From a virus: a stretch of 64,000 nucleotides of DNA. The notes beneath the pieces are model-generated. The model saw only the letters and a program-made list of their open reading frames with translations, did not search any database and was not told the DNA's origin. Shown here one piece after another: positions 4,862 through 62,739 of this stretch. The DNA lies in IMG/VR virus record IMGVR_UViG_3300031730_000003, positions 3,108-67,107 of that record; one strand, given 5' to 3'. Each line of letters starts with the position of its first letter. Within the stretch, counting starts at the first letter, position 1. The position numbers and the translations under genes are program-made.

Positions 4862-7800
4862 TCACGGTCCGGTCTGAACAGCCTTCAGCCAGCCACCCTT
4901 ACCATCCGGCACGAACCAGTCGCCAGCGCCATTCTGGCGCGCACCGGCGGGGAGCCCGGCTGGCGCATTCGCGGCCGGAGGTGGCGCGGCACCGGCTGGC
5001 GCTGCGCTACGGGCATTGGCCTGCGCGCCGCCGGTGATCGTCCGCGCACCCTTGATCGCCTCGTCGACGCTCTTGCCGGCACCGATCAGGGAGCGCGTGG
5101 TCGCCAGCTCCTGGTCGGTCATGCCCTTGATGACCTTCTGCTGGTCGTTGGTCACGGCGCGGTTGAAGCGGTCGCGCGCCAGGGCGATCGTGTCCTGCCG
5201 AGCCGCCAATTGGGCCGTCTGGTACTCGTTCATCGGCCTGGCGCCGACCCGCACACCGGTGGCATGCACGCCAGTCTTGTCGGCGACGATCGCGTTGCCC
5301 TCGTCGTCCGTGCCGATGTAGTTCGGCCGCCCTGCCTGTTCCTCCATGACCTGGTTGTGCCGCTGCGTCTCGCCTAGGTGGCCGCCGGAGATCGCAAGCT
5401 GCTTGTTCTGGTGGTCGATCTGCGCCGCCAGCTTCTCCGCTGCCTGCTGCGCCGACGCGGCGCGCCACTCGCGCTGCATCTGCACGGCGTCCTTGCGGGC
5501 CTGGACCGCCTCGCGCCGCACGGCATTCTGAGCGGCGATCTGCTTCTGCTGCTGCAGATCGGTCAGCCCGGCCATGGCCCCGGCGCCGATGTTGGTCAGC
5601 GCGTGCGGCGACTTGCCTGCGGCCATGGCAAAGCCGGCCTTGGCAACCGAGAGCCATGGGTCTGCCTTGAGCATTGGGTCCTCGGTCGCCGCCGGCGTCC
5701 AGCCACCACCGCTTGTGCCATCGCCCCCGTCAGGTGCGCCGGGCGGGACTGGCGGTGGTGGCGGGATGCCCATGTTGGGGCCGGCGGCAGCCCCCAAGCC
5801 GCCGCCCTGCGGGGCCATGCCAGGCCCTGTTGCCGCAGCCAAGCCGCCGCTGGGAGCCTGCCATGGCGCCTCGCCGCGGGGATCGGTGGAAATGCCGACG
5901 GGAGTTCCGCTGACGTCGATCACGGAGGAATTGTCGCCGGTGTCGGGGGGCATCTGGTCGATCGGATCGGCAAAGTCCGGCGTATTGCCGCTGACGAGAC
6001 CGGGATCTAGGTCGCCCCACGGTGTCGTCGGGAGAAGGCCGCCAGCATCGCGGTGCAGCGGGCCGCCGCGGCGCATGCCGCGTGCCTCGGCTGTGGCGTC
6101 GCCCTGCGCGCCGATATCTGGCCCACCACCGAGACCGCCGCCGTTATCCCCTCCGCTCAGCGAGTTCGTCGCACCGCCGGTGATGTCGCCCATGGGACCG
6201 CTCATGCCGCCGACGCCGCCAGCCAGGCCAGCCATGGCGCCGGTGCCGAAGCCTCCTGCACCGACGTCGGGGTTAACCTCGATCTCCTTGCCGCTAAGGC
6301 CGTCGACGCTGCTAGAGGTCGAAGTCGGGGTGCCGAACAAATCCTTGATGGCACTGATCGCGGCCTTGCTGGGCGATCCCGTCTTGCCATTGGAAGCCGC
6401 CAAGGCGCCGACGAAGCCTGCCGCCCCTAGCGGACCGCCGAAGACTGCCCCAAGGCCACTGGCTACAGCGCTGGCAAAATCACCGAAGTTGGAGACGGAC
6501 CCGTTGAAGCCCTGGTCCGTGGCGCCGGCACCGCCGTTGCTGCCAGACTCGGTCCGTGCCGCAACGCCGGTGGCGTCGAGGCCGCCGGTGCCAGCCCCCC
6601 CTGTCGTGCTGCCCGACGGATTGAAGTCCACCGTGGGGAAGTTGTACGACACGGGCGGCGGCGCATTCCAACCGGGAACCTGGGAATTCAGATAGTCCTG
6701 CGTCGAATTGCCACCGTCGGTGCCGGTGCGCAGCATCGGTACACCGATGCCGCCCGCGTAGCTCGACGGATTGACGGTCACCAGCGGGCTCGACGGCAGA
6801 GAGCCGCCGGCGGCGCGGCGCACGCGATGGCCCGGGAACGGGATCAGGATACCGCGGGGCTCGTCCGGCACGGCGCCGCCACGCTTCGAGAACAGGTTCG
6901 TCAGCCAGCCATTCGATCCGAAGCCGCCGGTGCCCCCAATCAGGCCTGTAGCGCCAAGCGCGAGGCCCCCAAGCTGCGAAACGGTGCTTGGTGCCGGCGC
7001 GCTGGTGGAACTCGTGCCGCCGGAGGCGCCCCCGAGCCCGGTGCCGATGCCGCTCAGCCAGGATGTGGTCTGGAACGGGTAGGCCTGCTGCGCCTGCCAC
7101 TGGTAGTACGGCACGTTCAGGCCGGCTTGCGCCTGCTGCTGCTGGGTGGCGCCAGAGGAGGCCAGTGCGTTGGCGCCGGCCAGCGAGCTCGTCAGCGCCT
7201 GATTGCCAAGCGCGGACATGCCGTAGCCGGTCTGCAGTCCGAGGCCGGCTTGTGTCGTCGCCGCGCCGAGGGCCTGGCCGCCGAGGCCGGCAATCCCCGC
7301 TCCAGCGCCCTGCTGAAGCTGTGCCTGTTGGCCGGCAGCGCCGAGGGCTTGGTTGCCCAGCGCCGTGTAGCCCTGCGCGCCCTGGAGCGCCAACGCTCGG
7401 CTCTGCGCATCGGCGCTGAGATTGACGCCCTGCTGCTGGTTGAACTCGTTCAGCGCCTGGCTATAGCCCTGATTGTAGAGCCCGGCGATCACCGGCGCTT
7501 GAGCGGTCTGCTGCTGCCCGGCCAGCACCGCCTTCGCGATGCCAGCCCGGTCGCCGCCCCAGGCGCCCTTCGAGATCAGGTTGCCGGTCAGGTCATTCTG
7601 CTGCTGCGCATTGGTGTTGTTGAACTGCGCCTGCGTGGCGTTGACCACGCTGTTGGTATAGGGGCTCGCGTACTGGTTCACCGCATTCGCCGAGAAGCCC
7701 GCCGGCGTGATCGCTGCTGACCCCGAACCGAAGCCGCTGGCGGCCTGCGTCTGCCACGGCGAGACGGTTCCGGTGAGGTCGGTGTTGCCCGACGCGTTGA

Positions 7801-8104
7801 AGTAGCTGCCGGCTGCGTTCGTGAACGGCGACAGCGTCGACCCCAGCGGGGCGTTCGCCTTGTCGTAGTAGCTGGCCGCGGAGTTGATGTATGGCGCCGC
7901 GATGCCTTGGCTATCGCGCACCTGCTGCATTGCCTGCAACTGGTCTGGCGACAGATCGGCCACCATCTGGCCGCCATATTGGGTGTACGGCGTAGCCGCG
8001 ACCGTCTGGGCGCGCGAGAAGATGTTCTTGTAGGCGTCCAGGAAGGCCTGGTTGGGCTGGGACGACGTCGTGGTTGTGTCAGTCCCCTTGCTGCTGCTGC
8101 CCAT
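4862..8104 (-). CDS. DNA transfer / ejection protein (Gly/Ala/Gln-rich, P22 pilot-protein-like)
   Basis: 1080 aa. N-terminus MGSSSKG..TTT..PYTQYGGQMVADLSPDQ, then NQYASPYTNSVVNAT, GAWGGDRAGIA and QQAYPFQ, typical of podoviral ejection proteins. Follows the GNAT gene. Confidence 0.75.
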   Translation of the reverse strand: MGSSSKGTDTTTTSSQPNQAFLDAYKNIFSRAQTVAATPYTQYGGQMVADLSPDQLQAMQQVRDSQGIAAPYINSAASYYDKANAPLGSTLSPFTNAAGSYFNASGNTDLTGTVSPWQTQAASGFGSGSAAITPAGFSANAVNQYASPYTNSVVNATQAQFNNTNAQQQNDLTGNLISKGAWGGDRAGIAKAVLAGQQQTAQAPVIAGLYNQGYSQALNEFNQQQGVNLSADAQSRALALQGAQGYTALGNQALGAAGQQAQLQQGAGAGIAGLGGQALGAATTQAGLGLQTGYGMSALGNQALTSSLAGANALASSGATQQQQAQAGLNVPYYQWQAQQAYPFQTTSWLSGIGTGLGGASGGTSSTSAPAPSTVSQLGGLALGATGLIGGTGGFGSNGWLTNLFSKRGGAVPDEPRGILIPFPGHRVRRAAGGSLPSSPLVTVNPSSYAGGIGVPMLRTGTDGGNSTQDYLNSQVPGWNAPPPVSYNFPTVDFNPSGSTTGGAGTGGLDATGVAARTESGSNGGAGATDQGFNGSVSNFGDFASAVASGLGAVFGGPLGAAGFVGALAASNGKTGSPSKAAISAIKDLFGTPTSTSSSVDGLSGKEIEVNPDVGAGGFGTGAMAGLAGGVGGMSGPMGDITGGATNSLSGGDNGGGLGGGPDIGAQGDATAEARGMRRGGPLHRDAGGLLPTTPWGDLDPGLVSGNTPDFADPIDQMPPDTGDNSSVIDVSGTPVGISTDPRGEAPWQAPSGGLAAATGPGMAPQGGGLGAAAGPNMGIPPPPPVPPGAPDGGDGTSGGGWTPAATEDPMLKADPWLSVAKAGFAMAAGKSPHALTNIGAGAMAGLTDLQQQKQIAAQNAVRREAVQARKDAVQMQREWRAASAQQAAEKLAAQIDHQNKQLAISGGHLGETQRHNQVMEEQAGRPNYIGTDDEGNAIVADKTGVHATGVRVGARPMNEYQTAQLAARQDTIALARDRFNRAVTNDQQKVIKGMTDQELATTRSLIGAGKSVDEAIKGARTITGGAQANARSAAPAGAAPPPAANAPAGLPAGARQNGAGDWFVPDGKGGWLKAVQTGP

Positions 8105-53829: not shown

Positions 53830-55976
53830 CCAAAGCCTGCGAGCCGGCGGACACGGCGATGGATGGGTGCGGGCCACCCCAACATCTGCGCGGCGCGGAC
53901 ACCATGCACTACGTGCAATGCCGCAATCGCGATCCGGAAATTTCTCGCTGGATACCGGACTACGCCGACACGCCCGAGGGCGGCTTCTGGTGGCATGGGC
54001 GTCGAGATGTGTCGCCTCGCATGATGGCCGATTGGGGTTATCGCTACATCTGCGCAGTCCCCTCCCCGGCCGAACTGGCTGCCCTGGTGCGGGCGGCTCG
54101 GGCGGCAAAGCAATGGCAAGAACGCCGTGTATCTGGCCAAGTCGCTACGTTCCACTCAACGATCGACGATCTCGTATTGGCCGATCTCAACACCGCCCTC
54201 CAGCCCTTCGAAGGAGTTGCCGATGTCTGATCGTAGCGCACTGCTGGCGTTGGCTGCGCGGGCGGAAGCGGGTGGGGATGCGGCGCTTTCCAGGGATGTT
54301 TGGATCATGCTGGGGTGGCGTGAAAAGAAGGCACACAACGGCTGGATTCCGCCGGAAAGACCGCAACAAGTCCGAGACTTGGTATGGGGCCCCCGCCCCA
54401 ATCTTCAAACCTCGCTCGACGCGCAGGCGGAGTTGCCGGGGCGGATCAGGTCCGTGATGAACTGCGCGCCAGCTTCACCTGGGTCATGGATTGCATGGGC
54501 TGCTACTAGCGCGAACGCGGAAGGACTTCCCGCGTCTGCCCCGACCGAATCGCTGGCAAGGCTCGGGGCACTTCTCCGCGCCCTGGCCGCAGCCAAGGAG
54601 GACGGGGATGGAGAGTGACGGAATTCCAGTGCATCCGGTGCAGACCGGCTTTCGAGGCGGCCAAGCGCCTCAGTCGGTCACGCTACGGGCGTATGAGGTC
54701 TACAGCGAGATATACAGCCCGCAGCCGGCCATGATTGAGGACGGCTGCCGGGGCGGCTTCAGCACTGGAGAACTGGTCGCGTTCCTCTACGCGAGGTCGT
54801 TCCCCAAGGCTGAATGGCGCAGGCGATTTGATGAGGCCGTGCGCGGAATGAAAGGATTTGGCCGCCATGCCTGACCCCACCCTCTCCAGCGCATCGGAAC
54901 GCAGCCGACAGGACGATCCATCAGTCTGGTCGTACGAAGAAGCGCTGGAACATGCGCGTAGGGCCATCTACGACGACGGCCGCGGCATGATCGGAGCAAA
55001 CCGGAACTACCTCGCCTATCGCGTGGCTAGGGCGTTGCAGGAGGCTCAGCGCGCTTCCCTACGAGCGAGGGCGCAGGGATGAGCGGGGATCAGGGGCCGC
55101 GTCGGCCGCAGACCATGGAATACTCAATGGCAACCATGGCGTTGGTCGCTGGTCTGGCCATGTCCGGCGCCCCCATGGGCCGCCGCTTGAAGCAAGCCCG
55201 CCTACGCAGGAAGGCCAAGACGCCAGCGCAGATCGCCCGCAAGGCCAAGCAGGTCGCCCAGCGCAAGGCCCGTAAGATCACGAGGCAGAACCCATGACCG
55301 CCCGCCGCGCAGCACTTCGCCGGCTGCTGGAGGATTGGGAGGCGGGCATCGCTACGATTGTGTTTGAAAGCGAGATCGCGGAGGCGTCTGAATTGGTGCT
55401 GGCCGGGATCGTCAAATCTACCGGCGTTCGCACGATGCGGTTAACAGATGCCGGCCTCGCGCTCGCGCGGCGGGACGAGGGAGGGGCGGGATGACCTGGG
55501 CCAAGATCAACATCAACGACAAGATGCGATTCCAACTGACAGAGCGCGGCAAGAAAATCTGGCTGGATTACTGGCGTCCATATACCGGAGGCGAGGAACC
55601 GACCTTGCCGCAAGAAACTGACGGCTGGTGCTCGGGACAGATGTGGTCGGTGATGTCCGTGTTCGGCCCGCACTTTTCCTGCGGCGCGGATATCCCGATC
55701 AAGACGGAGATTCTGGTCGAAGTCCCCACCCCCTCGGCCGACGCCGATGGGTGAGCGGGAGGTGGGGCTAGGGACGACTGTGCGGCAGATATCTCACCCG
55801 CACGACGTTGGCTTCGTGGAATGCATAAGCCGATGCGGCGAGATCGCCATCGTGAAGTTGGACGGCCGGCATATCAGCACGCCATACCCGATATCTGACC
55901 TGGAATCCTGGAACCGCCGCGCTGGCACCCATGAGTAACCCCAACCCGTTGCGCGTGGTGGTGTGTGGAGGGGCGG

Positions 55977-56489
55977 ATGGGTGAGCGTCGCTTCCGCATC
56001 TCGTGGATACCGCTTCGTGAGGCGAACCGCTTTATCGGGCTGCACCATCGCCATCACGTGCCGAGCCAAGGCGGAATCGTCGCCCTGGGGTGCTGGGAAG
56101 GACAGCGCTTGGTTGGCGTCGGCGTGATCGGGCGCCCGGTGTCGCGGAAGCTCCAGGAACAAGGGCATTGCGAGATCGTGCGCAGCTGCGTGCTGGATGA
56201 CATTCTTCCGTCCGGGCAGCATGCGGCTTGCGCGGCGTCCGGGCTGTTAGGGCGTCTGCGCCGCCTGGCTGGCTCTCTCGGGTTCGTCCACGTCGTCACT
56301 TACACGCTTCCAGAAGAAAGCGGCGCAAGCCTGACGGCATCGGGTTGGAAGCAAGACGACGCGCTGTTCGGCGGCGGAGATTGGAGCGTGTCGTCCAGAC
56401 CTCGCGCAGAATCCCGTCACCCAACAGCGCCTAAGCGCCGGTGGTGGCGCGAAACAGGCGCGCAACCGGAGTTGAAGATAGATGCCTGA
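55977..56489 (+). CDS. XF1762-family GNAT/Mom-like protein
   Basis: LREANRFI..HHRHH....G...LVGV..IGRPVSR...EI.R.C...S.L.G...R....LGF...VTYTL.EESGASL.ASGW...KRRW. Confidence 0.8.
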   Translation: MGERRFRISWIPLREANRFIGLHHRHHVPSQGGIVALGCWEGQRLVGVGVIGRPVSRKLQEQGHCEIVRSCVLDDILPSGQHAACAASGLLGRLRRLAGSLGFVHVVTYTLPEESGASLTASGWKQDDALFGGGDWSVSSRPRAESRHPTAPKRRWWRETGAQPELKIDA

Positions 56490-56667
56490 TTCTAAGGAAG
56501 ATGACGGCGAATGCCCGAACTGCGGCGGAGAAGGTCTCGTGTGGGGGTGCTTCGAGGATAGCTGTTCCTGCACCGATGACGACGGGCTTGGATGCTCGCC
56601 AGCTCGATGCGATTGGTGCCAGCCGCCCCACCCCACCGCCTCCGGGGTGACGGGGAGGGAGGAGTAG
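56482..56667 (+). CDS. Small Cys-rich (DnaJ Zn-finger-like) protein
   Basis: CPNCGGEG...CFEDSC.C....C...CDWC. Confidence 0.6.
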   Translation: MPDSKEDDGECPNCGGEGLVWGCFEDSCSCTDDDGLGCSPARCDWCQPPHPTASGVTGREE

Positions 56668-56682
56668 GATGAGCGGCGCCTA

Positions 56683-57027
56683 CTATCTTCCGCGCCCCAA
56701 TGCTGGCAGCACGACCGCCGTTGCCATCGACACCGCCGCCGTAATCCCAAGCCATACCACCTGAAGGACATACAGAGGCTCGTAGATCGTGACGATGTCC
56801 AGCACGTGCGACCCGGCGCAGCACAGGATGAACGCCACGAACAGCCATGTGCCGGCGCGACTGCTACCGCCACGCCAGAGCCCGAACGCCAGTTGCAGCG
56901 GGATCAGCACATAGGCCACCGCGATTACGCCGTTTGCGATGACGGTAGGGGTGACGAGATTGGCTTGCCACAACAGGCAGAAACCATGGGGCGTCAGGCC
57001 AGACGGCGTGAACAAAGCCTCTAGCAT
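56683..57027 (-). CDS. Stand-alone ETR1-type ethylene-binding-domain-like membrane protein (3 TM)
   Basis: PHGFCLLW; IAVAYVLIPLQL; FVAFILCCAGSHVL; ITAAVSMATAVVL match the three EBD helices, including C-x3-H. Confidence 0.85.
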   Translation of the reverse strand: MLEALFTPSGLTPHGFCLLWQANLVTPTVIANGVIAVAYVLIPLQLAFGLWRGGSSRAGTWLFVAFILCCAGSHVLDIVTIYEPLYVLQVVWLGITAAVSMATAVVLPALGRGR

Positions 57028-57407
57028 CGGTCGTCATCCCGGAGTTCGACGTTATAGGCGCCCATGACCAAGCCGAGACCGTCGCCCGTGATGGTGATCC
57101 AGCGCAACTCGCGGGTATCGGTGATGGACCTCCGGGGGCGCAGGCAATATCGGGTGACCTTGACCACGTTTTGGCCAGGCCGCACCTCATCCAGCCGCCG
57201 GCCTGCCCGCGCCCCTGAGTCAGTCGGGATCGCCTCGTAGAACGCCGAGGACTGGACGTAGGGCACGTATGGCGTCGGCAGGAAGACGCGCTCCACCGTG
57301 GTCACGTAGCCCGTGCCACCGATCGCCAGCGCCGAGCCCGCGAACATGGCGATCCGGCGCACCAGCGGGCTCAAAAAAGGGGGCTTGGCGGTCGCTACGG
57401 AGGGCAT
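57021..57407 (-). CDS. Single-TM membrane protein in the lysis cassette
   Basis: N-terminal TM IAMFAGSALAIGGTGYV; overlaps the EBD gene by 7 nt. Confidence 0.6.
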   Translation of the reverse strand: MPSVATAKPPFLSPLVRRIAMFAGSALAIGGTGYVTTVERVFLPTPYVPYVQSSAFYEAIPTDSGARAGRRLDEVRPGQNVVKVTRYCLRPRRSITDTRELRWITITGDGLGLVMGAYNVELRDDDRC

Positions 57408-57434
57408 GGGGAAGGGTAGGGCGGCGCCGACATG

Positions 57435-57965
57435 CTAGACGAACAACCCTTGCGCCTGCCAGTACATGGACAGGAACCCCTCCAGCGCCTCCGCATCCGG
57501 TTCCGCGGCAGCCGAACCCCGCACCCACTCCTTTTGGTAGGCGCGGGCCAGGTCGGTTGGGGTGCGGATGGTCATCGTCACCACCAGATGCGTCGTGCCG
57601 CCAACGAACAGCCCGCGCGACTGCACGCGGTTGCAGAGGAACGCGAGGCAGTCACCAGCGTCCGCGAACGCCACGAACCGCCGCGTCTTCCCCGTGCCGT
57701 TCTCCGGCAGCACGACGGTCCCGGCGAACAGGTGTGTCAGTTCAGGCGGCCAGCGCGAGCCATCGGCCTGCACCCCGGCATAGTTGTTGTTGACGCCGGA
57801 GCGCCCGTTGCTGCTCTCGTTCCTGAAGATGATGTAGGCGGTGCGCTGAACCTCTGCCAGAGCGTCCACCGCCCGCAGCGCGTCGATCGCGTCGGGCATG
57901 GCGACGGTGGTGCGGGCAAACAGTACCTCCGGCAATTCAGGGTAGGCGTTCGGAACGGCCGACAC
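57435..57965 (-). CDS. Putative endolysin (lysozyme-like, GH73-related)
   Basis: IFRNESSNG...NNNYAGVQA...RRFVAF; lies in the lysis cassette. Confidence 0.6.
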   Translation of the reverse strand: MSAVPNAYPELPEVLFARTTVAMPDAIDALRAVDALAEVQRTAYIIFRNESSNGRSGVNNNYAGVQADGSRWPPELTHLFAGTVVLPENGTGKTRRFVAFADAGDCLAFLCNRVQSRGLFVGGTTHLVVTMTIRTPTDLARAYQKEWVRGSAAAEPDAEALEGFLSMYWQAQGLFV

Positions 57966-57985
57966 CGCAGCGGGCGCCGGCCGGG

Positions 57986-58174
57986 CTATTCCCCCGAGGC
58001 TGGCGTCGCCTCCTGGAGTTTGGCGTGGGCGGCATCGAGCGCGGTGTCGATGGCGGCCGTCTGCTCGGGGGTGGCGCCGCCTTTGAGCGCCGCAATCTCG
58101 GTGCTGGCGAGGGTGATCAGTTGCGGGGCCTCCTGAAGGGCGAGCATCAGGAGTTGGAGGGTGATGGGGTCCAT
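57986..58174 (-). CDS. Small lysis-cassette protein
   Basis: TAGGA RBS; amphipathic, 62 aa. Confidence 0.6.
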   Translation of the reverse strand: MDPITLQLLMLALQEAPQLITLASTEIAALKGGATPEQTAAIDTALDAAHAKLQEATPASGE

Positions 58175-58184
58175 GGGTTGGGTC

Positions 58185-58424
58185 CTACGACGGAATGTAT
58201 GAGGGGCTGGCAGGAAGCCGGGATTCGATCGCTTCAAGCCGATCAAGAATCTGCTTCAGCAGCACGTCTTTGGCTGGATCGACGCAATCACGCTGACCGG
58301 TTTTACGGTCGAACTCCTGTGCCTTTCGGTACCAATCCACGAACGGCCGCAAATCCTGTGCCGGCCACTGTGGCACAGGGCCGAGCCGCATAGCGTAGTC
58401 GGATACAACGCTACTCGCGCACAT
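58185..58424 (-). CDS. Hypothetical protein
   Basis: AGGAGG RBS; MCASSVVSDY...A.EFD..TGQ.DC.DP.K. Confidence 0.65.
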   Translation of the reverse strand: MCASSVVSDYAMRLGPVPQWPAQDLRPFVDWYRKAQEFDRKTGQRDCVDPAKDVLLKQILDRLEAIESRLPASPSYIPS

Positions 58425-58433
58425 TGCGGCCTC

Positions 58434-58739
58434 CTACTTCTTCACCGGGATCAGCGTCACCAGCCGCGCCACCAGCGCCGACGCATCGGCAGCCGAGAGC
58501 TTGCCATCGGACATGGATTTCACGCCGTCGTAGGCGACCTGGTCGGCCGTCTTGATCTGCGCCGACACCGACGCGTCGCTGCACAGGCGCCCCGTAGGCT
58601 GCGGGCACAGCGGCAGTTGCACATAGATGGTCGCCGCCGTCTCGGCAGCCGTCAGGGCAACCTTGGTGGCGTTGACGGCGGTGGGGTCGGCACCGCACGC
58701 AGCGAGCAGCAGCGCGCCGGCGAGGAGGAGGGGTTTCAT
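58434..58739 (-). CDS. Lipoprotein (spanin candidate)
   Basis: Lipobox MKPLLLAGALLLAA-C. Confidence 0.7.
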   Translation of the reverse strand: MKPLLLAGALLLAACGADPTAVNATKVALTAAETAATIYVQLPLCPQPTGRLCSDASVSAQIKTADQVAYDGVKSMSDGKLSAADASALVARLVTLIPVKK

Positions 58740-59122
58740 GGGGTGGGTCCTTGGGTTGTGGAGGTCGGCAAGATCGAGGCGATCGGCGCCTTGGTCACAT
58801 AGCGCATGACATACGACCCGGCCCATGCCCCGACGAGCCCGGCGATGCCCGCCACGAGGTTGATCGTGTCGGGGGTCAGGCAGTTCGCCGCCACGACAGT
58901 CACCGAGCATGCGAGCCCGTACTTTGTGGCCAGCAGCCCGATCAGGCCAGCGAGCGCGGTGCCCCACGGCGTCTTGCTGTAGGCGAGAGGTTTCCCGATC
59001 AGTTGCTCGGCCAGAGCAGGATCGACCGCCTTCAGGCCCGTGATGAGGCTCTGAGCGTCCTGGGCGACTGCGATGGCTGCGGTGGCGGCAGGTGTCGTCA
59101 GGTTGGCTGGGGTGTCGGTCAT
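58736..59122 (-). CDS. Holin candidate (2 TM)
   Basis: SKTPWGTALAGLIGLLA...LVAGIAGLVGAWAG...R.VT..PI. Confidence 0.6.
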   Translation of the reverse strand: MTDTPANLTTPAATAAIAVAQDAQSLITGLKAVDPALAEQLIGKPLAYSKTPWGTALAGLIGLLATKYGLACSVTVVAANCLTPDTINLVAGIAGLVGAWAGSYVMRYVTKAPIASILPTSTTQGPTP

Positions 59123-59138
59123 GGCGGCTCCTACGGGC

Positions 59139-59327
59139 TCACAGAAGGGCGCACAGGGCAGGGGCGCCATACCAGGCCGCTACCCACCCGACTGCCGCCA
59201 GAGCCAGCCCTACGAGGCTCCAGCGGTTCGGACGCCACATCAGCGGCGGCTCATCCAGGCCGATACCATCGCGCTCCGCGAAGCCAGCCATCTCCTCCGC
59301 GGCGTAGACTGGAATCGGCTCGGCCAT
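59139..59327 (-). CDS. Small membrane protein
   Basis: GAGG RBS; C-terminal TM. Confidence 0.5.
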   Translation of the reverse strand: MAEPIPVYAAEEMAGFAERDGIGLDEPPLMWRPNRWSLVGLALAAVGWVAAWYGAPALCALL

Positions 59328-59335
59328 TTCGTGCC

Positions 59336-59731
59336 TCACTTTCCAAGCAGCCTGATGACTGTCCACTTGAGCGCGTCTGGCACGAAAGGTGCAAGCACAG
59401 ACCACGCCGTGATGCCCAGGATCGCCAGCACGCTCGCCCATTTGGTCGCGCCGGCGTGCCAGGCCGAGAACTCCTGCACCGGGCTCTTGAGGCTTTCCAC
59501 GGTCCGGCGCAGTTCGGACAGCCCCGTCTCCAGGCGCTCGCGTTGCATATCCGATGCGTCCGCTCGCGCGCTGAGACGACGATCCATGTTTTCGAGGGTG
59601 TCCCGGAGGTCCCGCACGTCCTCGTCCCGCTGCTTGGCGCTCACTATCAGCGCCTCCATGGAGCCTACCAGCCGACCGACGTCCTGCCGGAGCGCCCCAA
59701 GCTGGGCGAGAGTTTCTCTGGCCTCGCTCAT
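59336..59731 (-). CDS. Coiled-coil protein with C-terminal TM (lysis-associated)
   Basis: Heptad repeats followed by WASVLAILGITAWSVL. Confidence 0.7.
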   Translation of the reverse strand: MSEARETLAQLGALRQDVGRLVGSMEALIVSAKQRDEDVRDLRDTLENMDRRLSARADASDMQRERLETGLSELRRTVESLKSPVQEFSAWHAGATKWASVLAILGITAWSVLAPFVPDALKWTVIRLLGK

Positions 59732-59851: not shown

Positions 59852-62113
59852 TCACGGTCCGCACTGCCAGTACATCGTGGCCCCCGCCATATCGGCTGAG
59901 AACGCCGCCACCAGCGTTGTCGTGCTGGTCGATGTGACCGCCGCCGTGATGGCCGAACTGCTGATGTTGATCGTGCAGAACGGCGCATAGGACAGCGTCG
60001 CCGGGAAGGTCACGGTGCAGCCTGTCGCCACGGTCGGAATGACGACGCTGCCGCGCTGCCAGGAGGCGTTGGTGGCCACGGTGGGCGAGCCCGATCCGCA
60101 AGATGTGACGGTAGGCGCCCGCGTCGTCGGGATTTTGTCCCAGGCGTTCACCCCCTGCATCAGCAGGCCGGCGCTGGTCGAGCTATCCGTGAGCGAGGCG
60201 GCCCCGACTGTCGAAACGCTGCCATTGCCAGAGACATTGTGCCGCCCGGCAGAGCCCGCAATGTTCATGGCGAAGGAGCACGTCTTGAGCGTGTTGCCCG
60301 TGATATCGGCGATGTAGCTGGCCGCGCCGGTCGAGTTGATGCCGTAGATGGTGCTGGTCGTCGTGCGGTTGCAGGCGATGGTATTGCCGGAGATCGTCGC
60401 GAGCCCGGCCCCACCAGCCCCGACATTTACCCCGGTATAGGTGCCGACCGTGGACGACTTGCCGTAGTTCAGGATTTCGTTGCCGGTCACCGTCAGCGTG
60501 GTAATGCCGGTTCCTGTGATCGACACCACCGAACCCAGCGCGAAGCTGACCTTGGTGCCCGTGATCAGCAAGGACGAGGTGGCGGCCTGGGTGGCGAGAT
60601 TGAAGACCGCCCTGGTGAGGGACGTATCGAAATTGTTCGTGCTGTAGATCTCGCCGCCGGTCCATGCCGTGGTGACGATGGAGGCCGTCGATCCTTCGAC
60701 AGACAGCGGGGTCAACGTCTGATCGAAATTCACTCCGGTGATCGTCGAGACATTGATGGTCCCGCTGAGCACGCGAAGGCCATAGGCCATTCCGTTGACG
60801 CCCATGCCGACCAGCGTAATGCCGTCCATCGTGGTCTTCGTGCCGGCCGCGATGTCGATGTGGATGAACTCGCCCGATGTCGCTGTATAGCGCGCCAAGT
60901 TCGCCGGCCCCGCTACAGCGCCGCCGTCGAACCCGCCCGGGCCAAAGTAGTTGCGCGGCCCGACCATGAAAAAGTCGGCCTGCCCGTTGGCGAAGCTGAA
61001 GCACTTGTCCACGCAATAAGCATCGATGTTGTCGAAAAAGACGCGGCCCCAGCCGTTGCCGGCCCCCGTCAGGACGTTCCAGCCATTCCAGGCATTGGCA
61101 ATCCTGAAGTTCTGGAAGCTGTCGTTGACGAATTGCGCGCTCTCGAACAGGGCCGGAAAGGTGATCGGCGTGACGGTGCTGTTATCCTGCTCGGGATAGT
61201 AGACATTCAGCCCGTCCCAACTCACGCCTGACATGCCGTTGAAGGTGGCCGAGGTCTTGTTGGAGATCACCAACCATGAGCCATTGCCGACGAAGGGGTA
61301 GTTGAAGCCAGTTTTGCCGGTGCCCTCGATGGCGATGCTGTTCAGGGCAATCGCCGTCGTGGCGCTCGCCAGCCAATAGCCGCCGGCCGGGAAGATCAAC
61401 TTCTTGCCCGCAGCCCCCGTCACCGCTGCCGTGATCGCTGCCGTGTCGTCCGTCCCGTAGAGGAAGCGCCCGGCCGCCTGATACCCTACCGTGGTGAAAG
61501 TCGCGCCCGTGCCACCGCCGCCCGTCGTGGCGGAACCCGAAGGCGGAACAACGGTGCACACGCCCGCCGTCACCATCGACAGCACGGCTGTGACCACGTT
61601 GCCCGCCACAGTCACGCTGATCTGCGGCTGTGTCGTGCACGTGCCTCCGGTGATGGTGAGGGTCTGCGTGCCGTTGGTGTAGCCAGATCCAGCCGCCAAC
61701 ACGGTGGGGCAAGATGCCGGCGAACAGTAGATGCCGGACTGCGGCGTCGCTACCGAAGCCGCCTGCGACAGGGTCACGCTGGTGGCGCTGATATAGGCGG
61801 AGATGGTGCCGAACTGCGGGATATTCGCCGCACCGGAGCCTTGCAGGTAGTAGGATTTCCCAACGTCCGCCGCGGTGAATGAGGCTGCGGCGCAGGTGAG
61901 CGTCGTGCCGGCGGCGGATATCGAGCAGGACGAAACGCCGGTTGTGTCGCCTTTTGCCAAATATGGATAGGCTTTGACGTTGATCGTGCCGGCAGCATTG
62001 AATGCCGGAGGATTGCCCTCCACTACGAGGCCGCCGCCTAAATAGGTGCTGCTCCATGCCGGTGACGCTAGGAATATCAGCGCCGCGACGAGCCAGCCTA
62101 AACGGTTGCGCAT
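59852..62113 (-). CDS. Tail-spike-like beta-helix protein with N-terminal signal peptide
   Basis: INVKAYPYLAKGD...TDDTAAITAA....LIFPAGGY (pectate-lyase-3-like start) with right-handed beta-helix repeats; N-terminus MRNRLGWLVAALIFLASPAWS. Confidence 0.8.
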   Translation of the reverse strand: MRNRLGWLVAALIFLASPAWSSTYLGGGLVVEGNPPAFNAAGTINVKAYPYLAKGDTTGVSSCSISAAGTTLTCAAASFTAADVGKSYYLQGSGAANIPQFGTISAYISATSVTLSQAASVATPQSGIYCSPASCPTVLAAGSGYTNGTQTLTITGGTCTTQPQISVTVAGNVVTAVLSMVTAGVCTVVPPSGSATTGGGGTGATFTTVGYQAAGRFLYGTDDTAAITAAVTGAAGKKLIFPAGGYWLASATTAIALNSIAIEGTGKTGFNYPFVGNGSWLVISNKTSATFNGMSGVSWDGLNVYYPEQDNSTVTPITFPALFESAQFVNDSFQNFRIANAWNGWNVLTGAGNGWGRVFFDNIDAYCVDKCFSFANGQADFFMVGPRNYFGPGGFDGGAVAGPANLARYTATSGEFIHIDIAAGTKTTMDGITLVGMGVNGMAYGLRVLSGTINVSTITGVNFDQTLTPLSVEGSTASIVTTAWTGGEIYSTNNFDTSLTRAVFNLATQAATSSLLITGTKVSFALGSVVSITGTGITTLTVTGNEILNYGKSSTVGTYTGVNVGAGGAGLATISGNTIACNRTTTSTIYGINSTGAASYIADITGNTLKTCSFAMNIAGSAGRHNVSGNGSVSTVGAASLTDSSTSAGLLMQGVNAWDKIPTTRAPTVTSCGSGSPTVATNASWQRGSVVIPTVATGCTVTFPATLSYAPFCTINISSSAITAAVTSTSTTTLVAAFSADMAGATMYWQCGP

Positions 62114-62739
62114 CACCGGAATCCCACACCCGCGTTCAGTGGCAGTGTTTCCGTGAGTGTCACGAAGCTATCTCCTGTCGCGCCGGAATTGGCCCGGTTG
62201 TAGGTGAAAGAGCAGGTGAATCCCCCACCCATTGTTCCGATATTGGTGATGAAGGGTTCGATCACGAGCCGATCTCCTTTCACGAACGCAGTGCTCGTCG
62301 GCGCTCCCGTGTAGTTCTGCGCCACCGCCCCTGTGGTCATTTCGGTTCCCTTATCCAGCGTGGCGAACAGGGTCTTGGTCCCGTCGGCCTGAAGCCTGGA
62401 CAGCTTGACTCGAAGCCCAGCGTTGGCGCTTGCAGAGCTTTCCGCAGTCCAGATGTTGATCGTGACGGTACCGGCGATTGTGATAGCCCCCGTGAAGGGG
62501 CGAGAGGCGAAGGAAATCGTCGCGCCGCCGGCGGTCGTGGTCCACTGGATATCTGTGCCGCTGCCGGCGGTGTTCACCGTGGCGGTGAGGATCGAGCCAG
62601 CTACCTTGTAGCGCCCGGCGAGATTGTATCCAGTGAAGCCGGCCCCGGTGTCCTGAAGGAACAGCGTCGTTTGCGCGGCCGCGGGGCCGCAGAACCCAAA
62701 GAGAAGCCCGGCAACCAGCAAGAGCACGGCGCGGATCAT
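62113..62739 (-). CDS. Beta-sandwich protein with signal peptide
   Basis: MIRAVLLLVAGLLFGFCGPAAA-Q; Thr-rich. Confidence 0.7.
   Translation of the reverse strand: MIRAVLLLVAGLLFGFCGPAAAQTTLFLQDTGAGFTGYNLAGRYKVAGSILTATVNTAGSGTDIQWTTTAGGATISFASRPFTGAITIAGTVTINIWTAESSASANAGLRVKLSRLQADGTKTLFATLDKGTEMTTGAVAQNYTGAPTSTAFVKGDRLVIEPFITNIGTMGGGFTCSFTYNRANSGATGDSFVTLTETLPLNAGVGFR

Follow-up and report, generated by a model that had tools for sequence, protein, structure and literature searches.

In studies so far, the ethylene-binding domain has figured as the input of receptors found in plants, in cyanobacteria and in a few proteobacteria. According to PMC10266040, Cys65 and His69 in helix 2 of ETR1 hold Cu(I), and a coupling of Asp25 with Lys91 links binding to output and passes the signal to helix 3; among 1,221 ethylene-binding domains, Asp25 is found in 93.55% and Asn in 3.67%, and the Asp25Asn change in ETR1 reduces the affinity for ethylene. 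Here we describe a gene (56683-57027, minus strand) that encodes this domain, the ETR1_N family of Pfam, as a complete protein in phage DNA. The gene lies in IMG/VR virus record IMGVR_UViG_3300031730_000003, a linear record of 67,107 bases with 66% GC that is 85% complete by CheckV; the whole stretch of 64,000 nucleotides that was analyzed, positions 3108-67107 of that record, is called the window below. Compared with the ethylene-binding domains of ETR1, SynEtr1 (Synechocystis) and AzoEtr1 (Azospirillum), the window protein is homologous over all three helices and keeps the Cys and His that are ligands of copper, but it has no output domain, has Asn for Asp25 and Leu for Lys91, and is encoded by a phage gene beside lysis genes.

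The open reading frame (ORF) of 114 aa begins with ATG and has the composition of coding DNA (GC of 0.62/0.48/0.77 by codon position). The protein matches ETR1_N (PF25487) with 65.8 bits and an E value of 4.2e-18, where the gathering cut-off is 27, and the match spans residues 24-109, which correspond to profile positions 2-89 of 97; in a Pfam run on the whole record the score was 66.3 bits. Three hydrophobic segments were found by a hydropathy scan (residues 24-42, 58-76 and 85-103), and the protein has a PHGFC lead-in, C70 and H74 in helix 2, and a short basic C-terminal tail (GRGR). A phmmer search matched 4185 representative proteins at E≤1e-3 (534 at E≤1e-10), almost all of them aligned over their own N-terminal 100-115 residues, and a sequence search of the PDB matched no solved structure.

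The residues that define the copper site are all retained. In a hidden Markov model alignment of 165 ETR1_N proteins taken from the phmmer matches, C17, Y39, F66, I67, C70 and H74 are invariant (165/165) and all are present in the window protein, as are P13/H14, found in 163 of the 165; the columns of I42 and P43 hold these residues in 158 and 150 proteins. C70 and H74 are the counterparts of ETR1 Cys65 and His69 (PMC10266040). The equivalent of Asp25, position 32, is Asn in the window protein (D in 112 and N in 45 of the 165), and the equivalent of Lys91, position 93, is Leu (K in 112/165). A sequence-only reading of this DNA had proposed just such an ETR1-type sensor domain with the Cys and His ligands of copper kept, in a 114-aa, three-helix ORF that overlaps the upstream gene and is the last gene of a lysis cassette. 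Our analysis bears this out: the start and stop codons overlap, the phage-side strings that had been quoted, including the lead-in PHGFCLLW, occur in the translation, the positions that had been named fall on invariant or nearly invariant columns, the two exceptions (D25 to N, K91 to L) are real, and the gene is the final one of the late strand, two genes past a probable endolysin.

Across the family, the column of Asp in helix 1 and that of Lys in helix 3 vary together, with Asp and Lys both present in 104 of 164 proteins and Asn with a non-basic residue in 34. Phage copies that have Asp mostly retain Arg or Lys (contigs L107, L098 and L104, described below). This co-variation, in bacterial and phage proteins, matches the coupling reported for ETR1 in PMC10266040. 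The idea that loss of the pair is exclusive to stand-alone proteins was rejected, since Asn with a non-basic residue also occurs in 19 of 110 long proteins.

The window protein is a conserved stand-alone form of ETR1_N and not a fragment. It ends 14 residues past the conserved Ser of helix 3 (S100), and has no GAF, PAS, His-kinase or GGDEF output domain. Its three closest relatives, P0002, P0169 and P0003, stop at almost the same position: the four proteins have mutual identities of 68-83% (to the window protein, 81-83% for P0002 and P0169 and 68% for P0003), and all end 14-21 residues past that Ser; counted from helix 3, the three relatives have 19-21 further residues. Neither the lack of a profile match nor a set of random, unconserved fragments, which the sequence-only reading had named as contrary outcomes, was found; instead there is a Pfam match with conserved short relatives, and the end of the ORF and the tails of the relatives agree with the earlier claim that there is no output domain. 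We are highly confident that the ORF encodes a genuine ETR1_N protein without output domain.

Near homologues of the window protein, in contrast, are fused to further domains. The nearest fused homologues (∼50% identity, 102-137 bits) are ETR1_N-PAS-HisKA-HATPase proteins, ETR1_N-PAS-GGDEF-EAL proteins and similar receptors. Similarly, none of the 80 best metagenome loci of the Joint Genome Institute, obtained in a search with the alignment of the window lineage (39-51% identity), is stand-alone: 60 loci with a stop have C-terminal tails of 123-1064 aa, and 20 run off their contig. A scan of genome contigs gave just two homologues, both distant and either fused or longer (624 and 301 aa). Short bacterial proteins that consist of ETR1_N only do exist, for example a 172-aa hypothetical protein of Bradyrhizobium on a 443-kb contig, and with a threshold of E≤1e-8 matches were obtained for at least 204 proteins of 62-282 aa, some of which have HisKA or PAS matches or are partial. 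Such short bacterial proteins may be genes of prophage lysis regions and not broken receptors, which would be a warning for annotation.

A search of viral contigs with the single window protein returned no relative, and the one viral contig with the exact PHGFCLLW DNA pattern (L011) was rejected as a chance match, as its record has no ETR1_N. Other searches did find the domain in other phages. Searching 50,697 GenBank phage records by tblastn with three different ETR1_N queries gave matches to the Maribacter phages Molly and Colly only (8 records), in which the domain is unannotated. Molly gp065 (YP_010357114, 289 aa, 'hypothetical protein') matches ETR1_N at 60.9 bits. Like the window protein, gp065 of Molly and Colly keeps the Cys and His, has Asn at Asp25, is coupled to an upstream gene with one transmembrane (TM) segment and adjoins an endolysin; unlike it, gp065 has a C-terminal part of 165 residues, lies upstream of an Amidase_3 gene and is only ∼32% identical. 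In the Atlas, no usable match was found for the last 164 residues of Molly gp065.

When IMG/VR was scanned with an alignment of typical ETR1_N family members, 17 contigs carried the domain, all above the Pfam cut-off (55-126 bits); completeness reaches 90% or more in six of them, and terminal repeats are present in one. After the match, 13 contigs encode a tail of 10-36 aa, three a tail of 48-72 aa and one a tail of 244 aa, and 16 of the 17 copies have no room for an output domain. Eight viral ETR1_N ORFs compared with PHROGs gave no match. At the level of titles and abstracts, no description of a phage-encoded ethylene-binding domain was found in the literature, and the word 'ethylene' does not occur in the main text of the Molly paper (PMC8776804). 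The earlier statement that no phage example is described agrees with these literature searches, but the domain itself is present, unannotated, in the 8 Maribacter phage records and the 17 IMG/VR contigs. The one fused copy is in L095 (5971-7086), a 279-kb record that is 100% complete by CheckV; it is a 371-aa protein with 126 bits, and its 244-aa tail has the look of a kinase-dimerization region.

We compared 281 ETR1_N domains in a FastTree tree (LG model), comprising 18 phage copies, 116 proteins with tails of >100 aa, 104 with tails of ≤40 aa and 43 intermediate ones; the sample is biased, in that the long proteins were chosen because they resemble the window protein in sequence, and some of the short ones came from a length-restricted search. 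Two clades, from which all 116 fused proteins are absent, take in 13 of the 18 phage copies. One clade (n = 12, support 0.88) consists of the group II phages (to which L107 belongs), L105, Molly and four short proteins. The other (n = 23, with weak support of 0.12) consists of the window lineage, L099, the group I phages (among them L100 and L101) and 18 short proteins. All 35 sequences of the two short clades retain C70, H74, Y39, F66, I67 and S100, whereas the Asp25 column has D in 9/35 short-clade members versus 90/116 fused proteins, and the Lys91 column has K or R in 6/35 versus K in 89/116. The ETR1_N of the window is a member of a separate, short subfamily found in phage genomes.

The phage copies of ETR1_N are repeatedly found beside genes for enzymes that cut the cell wall. 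Hydrolases in other phage records were detected with eight profiles on simple ORF calls; the endolysin profiles included Amidase_2, GH19, Peptidase_M15_4, SLT, Phage_lysozyme2 and A1, a model built from an alignment of relatives of the 176-aa hydrolase of the window. A hydrolase lies within ∼2 kb of ETR1_N in 9/19 records (window and Molly included), which represent five lineages and four types of hydrolase. In L106-L110, a GH108 gene is 1.5-1.7 kb upstream of ETR1_N, with spanin-like and 2-TM genes between; in L099, ETR1_N is followed directly by a GH108 endolysin; and in L111, Phage_lysozyme2 is one gene downstream. Molly gp065 ends 4 nt before the Amidase_3 endolysin gp066. In PMC8776804, Molly is recorded with zero integrases, and the amidase is the only lysis gene listed. 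The order in L107 is GH108 endolysin, Rz-like gene, overlapping lipoprotein, 75-aa 2-TM ORF, 155-aa anchored protein with two Cys, and ETR1_N. Tail proteins are upstream of ETR1_N in L098, L099, L100, L109 and L111. Two observations on the lysis genes of L107 (4100-5529) may be added: its endolysin, GH108 with PG_binding_3, has a C-terminal hydrophobic anchor, and the Rz-like gene with its overlapping, out-of-frame lipoprotein ORF is an arrangement of the Rz/Rz1 type.

A second recurring feature is the membrane-protein gene just upstream of ETR1_N. Its end and the start of ETR1_N overlap in the window, L107, L111, L099, L098 and Molly (where this upstream gene, gp064, encodes one TM segment and a coiled coil). 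In the window, the ETR1_N ATG (57027-57025) and the TAG stop of the 128-aa partner p128 (57023-57021) form ATGCTAG on the minus strand. p128 has an N-terminal hydrophobic helix rich in Ala and Gly, followed by ∼90 residues with invariant C88 and C128. It has no match in Pfam, PHROGs or NCBIfam, and a hydropathy scan with a threshold of 1.6 called no TM segment; a low-confidence AlphaFold2 (AF2) model (predicted local distance difference test score, pLDDT, of 40.7) has a helix at residues 14-28. Its relatives form two clusters only, P0167/P0170 from NCBI (78-79% identity) and P0168/P0171 from Logan (60%). Both NCBI relatives are on contigs of 1496 and 1071 bp, the same sizes as the contigs of P0169 and P0002; because the two sets of contigs share both sizes, the p128 and ETR1_N pair very probably stays together in the relatives. 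A complex prediction for ETR1_N and p128 scored 0.00 without controls and counts neither for nor against binding. The partners in group II are related to one another (30-95% identity), but when their family was compared with that of p128 by hhalign, the probability was 0.3, and the likeness is in architecture only.

In other phage lineages, selection appears to maintain both ETR1_N and a partner gene. The sequence-only reading had suggested a search for stand-alone phage homologues that stay near lysis genes with a ratio of nonsynonymous to synonymous substitution (dN/dS) below 1. Such ratios were found: in two other phage lineages, ETR1_N has a dN/dS of 0.08-0.28, and the partner in group II has one of 0.10-0.21. 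In many comparisons dS is saturated; the pairs with the least saturation have ratios of 0.21-0.28. What emerges is a new form of the domain, a conserved phage protein without output that is repeatedly beside wall-cutting enzymes and coupled to a second membrane protein.

We tentatively propose, with a probability of roughly 0.45, that the window protein is a putative lysis-associated membrane regulator or holin-like protein. We favor a role in lysis because the neighborhood recurs with four types of hydrolase, because the gene occurs both before and after the hydrolase, and because it recurs in Molly, a phage recorded without an integrase. The protein has traits of holins (114 aa, three TM segments, the GRGR tail, and a gene two genes downstream of that for a GH73-like hydrolase). 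Its translation would be coupled to that of p128 through the overlapping stop and start codons, and it would sit in the inner membrane with an N-out/C-in orientation, as predicted from the basic loop 1 and C-terminal tail alone. We expect that it would dimerize and bind Cu(I), as other family members do. As it lacks both the Asp25-Lys91 relay and an output domain, it would work by contacting other proteins in the membrane, and it might exert holin-like or antiholin-like control of when the endolysin reaches the wall. Through the copper site, the timing of lysis may respond to copper, to redox state or to a small ligand that is unsaturated. Compared with class I holins of the lambda S105 type, the window protein is likewise small with three TM segments, a probable N-out/C-in topology, a charged C-terminal tail and a place in the lysis region; it differs in that it has no holin similarity and has a conserved metal site.

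If the protein is active in lysis, it would represent a new family of holin or antiholin type whose fold is that of a metal-cofactor sensor. The cultured phage Molly offers an experimental system for a question that can be tested directly, namely whether the time of lysis in phages is set by copper, by redox state or by a gaseous signal. A much broader proposal is that short ETR1_N proteins are a widespread and hitherto unrecognized phage lysis family, in which a holin or antiholin gated at the Cu(I) site would let copper, redox state, ethylene or some different small, unsaturated molecule decide when the host lyses; we consider this quite improbable. If it were true, the sensor domain of plant and bacterial ethylene receptors would share ancestry with a phage lysis module.

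Several observations weigh against a role in lysis. No hydrolase was found within ∼2 kb in 9/19 records. Eight of these, L096-L097 and L100-L105, gave no match with any of the eight profiles and are uninformative on adjacency; in the ninth, L095, the record with the fused form, the only lysozyme match is 97 kb away. In one more record the only GH108 match (L098) is at the opposite end of the linear contig and was not counted. The clade that holds the window lineage is weakly supported. In both the window and L107, the gene comes after what appears to be a full set of lysis-type genes, and a holin-like ORF of its own (the 75-aa, 2-TM one) is present in L107. The end of an operon is the classic site of a moron, and integrases lie just past ETR1_N, on the other strand, in L107 and L109. 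No similarity to holin families was found in Pfam, PHROGs or NCBIfam, and a plain hole-former would not need strict retention of a copper site. Finally, seven viral contigs encode relatives of the 176-aa hydrolase (40-68% identity), and 0/7 of these records carry ETR1_N, with Molly as the positive control, so the gene is dispensable for lysis in these relatives.

By tblastn with the cassette proteins, the hydrolase was found in 7/7 of the fetched loci (L003-L009), the lipoprotein and one early protein in L003 only, and p128 in none. In L003, a complete 71-kb genome with terminal repeats, a 593-aa ORF occupies the slot after the hydrolase; by eye, this ORF (∼6535-8087, plus strand) looks like a right-handed beta-helix of the pectin-lyase type. 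ETR1_N and p128 are a two-gene accessory cassette in a variable slot after the endolysin, at the 3' end of the late operon. Two known phage genes offer comparisons. LysA of P2 is an accessory, non-essential protein of lysis timing, and the window gene is also non-essential among relatives. Lambda bor, after Rz/Rz1, is a moron at the end of the late operon. The window gene is similarly last on the late strand after lysis genes, and it is absent from relatives that share its neighbors. It appears to differ from morons such as bor in two respects: it has no detected promoter or terminator of its own and a composition like that of its neighbors, and in other phages ETR1_N sits inside, not after, the lysis genes. 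A scan of 55800-59400 found no sigma-70-like promoter, a consensus scan being a weak test in a phage of 66% GC, and the sole terminator-like site is inside the endolysin gene. The GC content at third codon positions is 0.77 for ETR1_N versus 0.79-0.86 for most neighboring late-strand ORFs, two of which are lower (0.64 and 0.76).

The main rival to a lysis role is that the gene is a moron for host takeover, in which the output-less domain would pair with ETR1_N kinases or diguanylate cyclases of the host as a dominant-negative decoy and would alter biofilm, motility or surface receptors during infection or lysogeny. It fits both the end-of-operon position, in the window and in group II, and the label of a root sample, but we consider it unlikely. 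Its accessory status and variable slot, filled by an unrelated ORF in L003, are what would be expected of a moron, and the nearest fused homologues are receptors of the PAS-HisKA-HATPase and PAS-GGDEF-EAL kinds. Such receptors govern biofilm and root colonization in Azospirillum, according to PMC11819568. The only public run with DNA of window 56400-58400 is a DNA run labeled root metagenome, which fits as well; it is possibly the source sample and thus not independent evidence, and no RNA run was among the public runs listed for that segment. Group II phages carry integrases, whereas none is recorded for Molly (PMC8776804), in which the gene sits directly between those for a membrane protein and the endolysin, and no integrase or resolvase was found in the whole of the present, 85%-complete record. 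A decoy captured from receptors is also at odds with the tree, in which 13/18 phage copies are in old short clades apart from all 116 fused proteins and are not nested in receptor lineages. The weak scan gave no promoter- or terminator-like site of the gene's own, and a moron would not predict the repeated adjacency to four kinds of hydrolase.

A second alternative, in our estimate just as unlikely, is that the protein is another kind of membrane accessory, which with its coupled partner would form a complex for superinfection exclusion, envelope protection or periplasmic handling of Cu(I), with lysis not the target. The coupling to an upstream single-pass or membrane protein is consistent in six lineages, purifying selection acts in group II on ETR1_N as well as on its partner, the residues of the copper site are strictly retained, and the conserved Cys pairs in the partner families are compatible with a periplasmic domain. 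However, the chemistry of the domain is the sole tie to exclusion or copper handling, no homology was detected between the partner in the window and those in group II (hhalign 0.3), which does not speak for a single conserved complex, and the adjacency to hydrolases is left unexplained. That the gene is a decaying remnant, which a phage would have taken from the 5' part of a sensor-kinase gene of its host, would fit its lower Pfam score (65.8 bits, versus 102-137 for fused homologues) and the loss of the relay residues, but is highly improbable given the intact frame and coding-like composition, the same stop position in relatives at 68-83% identity, the retention of all invariant residues, the co-conserved partner and the dN/dS of 0.08-0.28 in two other phage lineages.

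A further arrangement was noted in group I, where two PAS proteins of ∼180-200 aa are encoded a few genes downstream of ETR1_N on the same strand (L100 7419-8523, and L101); one was matched by Pfam (PAS, E 2e-12) and the other was recognized by eye. ETR1_N and these PAS proteins could be a split sensor.

Features of the late strand of the window around the ETR1_N gene
Feature	Coordinates	Strand	Basis or remark
Tail-fiber-like protein, 754 aa, pectin-lyase type	59852..62116	-	phrog_32881, E 1.4e-7; end of structural module
Coiled-coil protein, 131 aa, C-terminal TM	59336..59731	-	Sub-threshold coiled-coil matches only
Membrane protein, 144 aa, candidate holin or spanin partner	58736..59170	-	One clear and one weaker hydrophobic segment
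Probable lipoprotein, ~101 aa from internal Met	58434..58739	-	Signal peptide with lipobox-like AAC
ORF, 79 aa, phrog_10166 (function unknown)	58185..58424	-	E 3e-11
Small conserved ORF, ~62 aa from internal Met, no TM	57986..58174	-	Read by eye
Probable endolysin, 176 aa, GH73/lysozyme-like fold	57435..57965	-	AF2 model, structure comparison
p128, 128 aa, co-traveling partner	57021..57407	-	ORF; no known family
Stand-alone ETR1_N membrane protein, 114 aa	56683..57027	-	ORF, Pfam, hydropathy, invariant columns

The 176-aa protein is a probable endolysin, a GH73-like peptidoglycan hydrolase, based on its predicted structure. Its AF2 model has a pLDDT of 86.1. The top five Foldseek matches are GH73 domains (FlgJ, Auto), of which the best has an E value of 8.7e-3 and none reaches 1e-3. 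VIA-align gave Z scores of 9.2 with Auto (3fi7), 8.7 with AtlA (7qfu) and 8.1 with a FlgJ-type hydrolase of Sphingomonas (3vwo), and the next 18 rows are also lysozyme-like wall hydrolases. Similarly, 27/30 Atlas look-alikes are in Glucosaminidase clusters, and E50 of an FRNE motif is invariant among eight relatives. The sequence had no match in Pfam, PHROGs or NCBIfam, its endolysin profile had no sequence match in the PDB, and tblastn against GenBank phages gave no match.

On the minus strand, the genes that follow the tail-fiber-like gene are, in order, those for the coiled-coil/TM protein, the 144-aa protein, the lipoprotein, two small ORFs, the 176-aa protein, p128 and ETR1_N. The start of the lipoprotein gene overlaps the stop of the upstream 144-aa gene, and the lipoprotein, which we infer to be an o-spanin-like candidate, has 53% identity to a lipoprotein ORF of L003. 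The 144-aa protein weakly matches phrog_29088 (E 0.0085), and the match of the 131-aa protein to LysB of TIGR03495 (E 0.0038) is far below the family cut-off. By eye, the ORF at 57986-58174 resembles a 75-aa ORF before the endolysin of L003, a link that tblastn at E≤1e-3 did not give. The 131-aa protein likewise has a by-eye look-alike in L003 (3765-4697, minus strand), on the strand opposite to the endolysin and undetected by tblastn at E≤1e-3; a comparison of the window with L003 suggests an inverted segment between the tail fiber and the lysis genes.

The DNA of the window is that of a phage. PHROGs matches across the record include large terminase, portal, major head protein, virion protein, ejection protein, primase/helicase and exonuclease, and the large terminase has <40% identity to that of any cultured phage. 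Pfam matched none of ten ORFs taken from the regions at 30-41, 49 and 62 kb. The late strand meets a converging plus strand just past ETR1_N, with 15 bp between the ETR1_N stop and the plus-strand stop. On that plus strand, the unit at 55965-56667 consists of a gene for a protein of the Mom family (PF25680, E 1.3e-6, barely above the cut-off) and, after it, an overlapping, Cys-rich ORF of 61 aa (CPNC...C...C...C), and it ends 15 bp from the ETR1_N stop.

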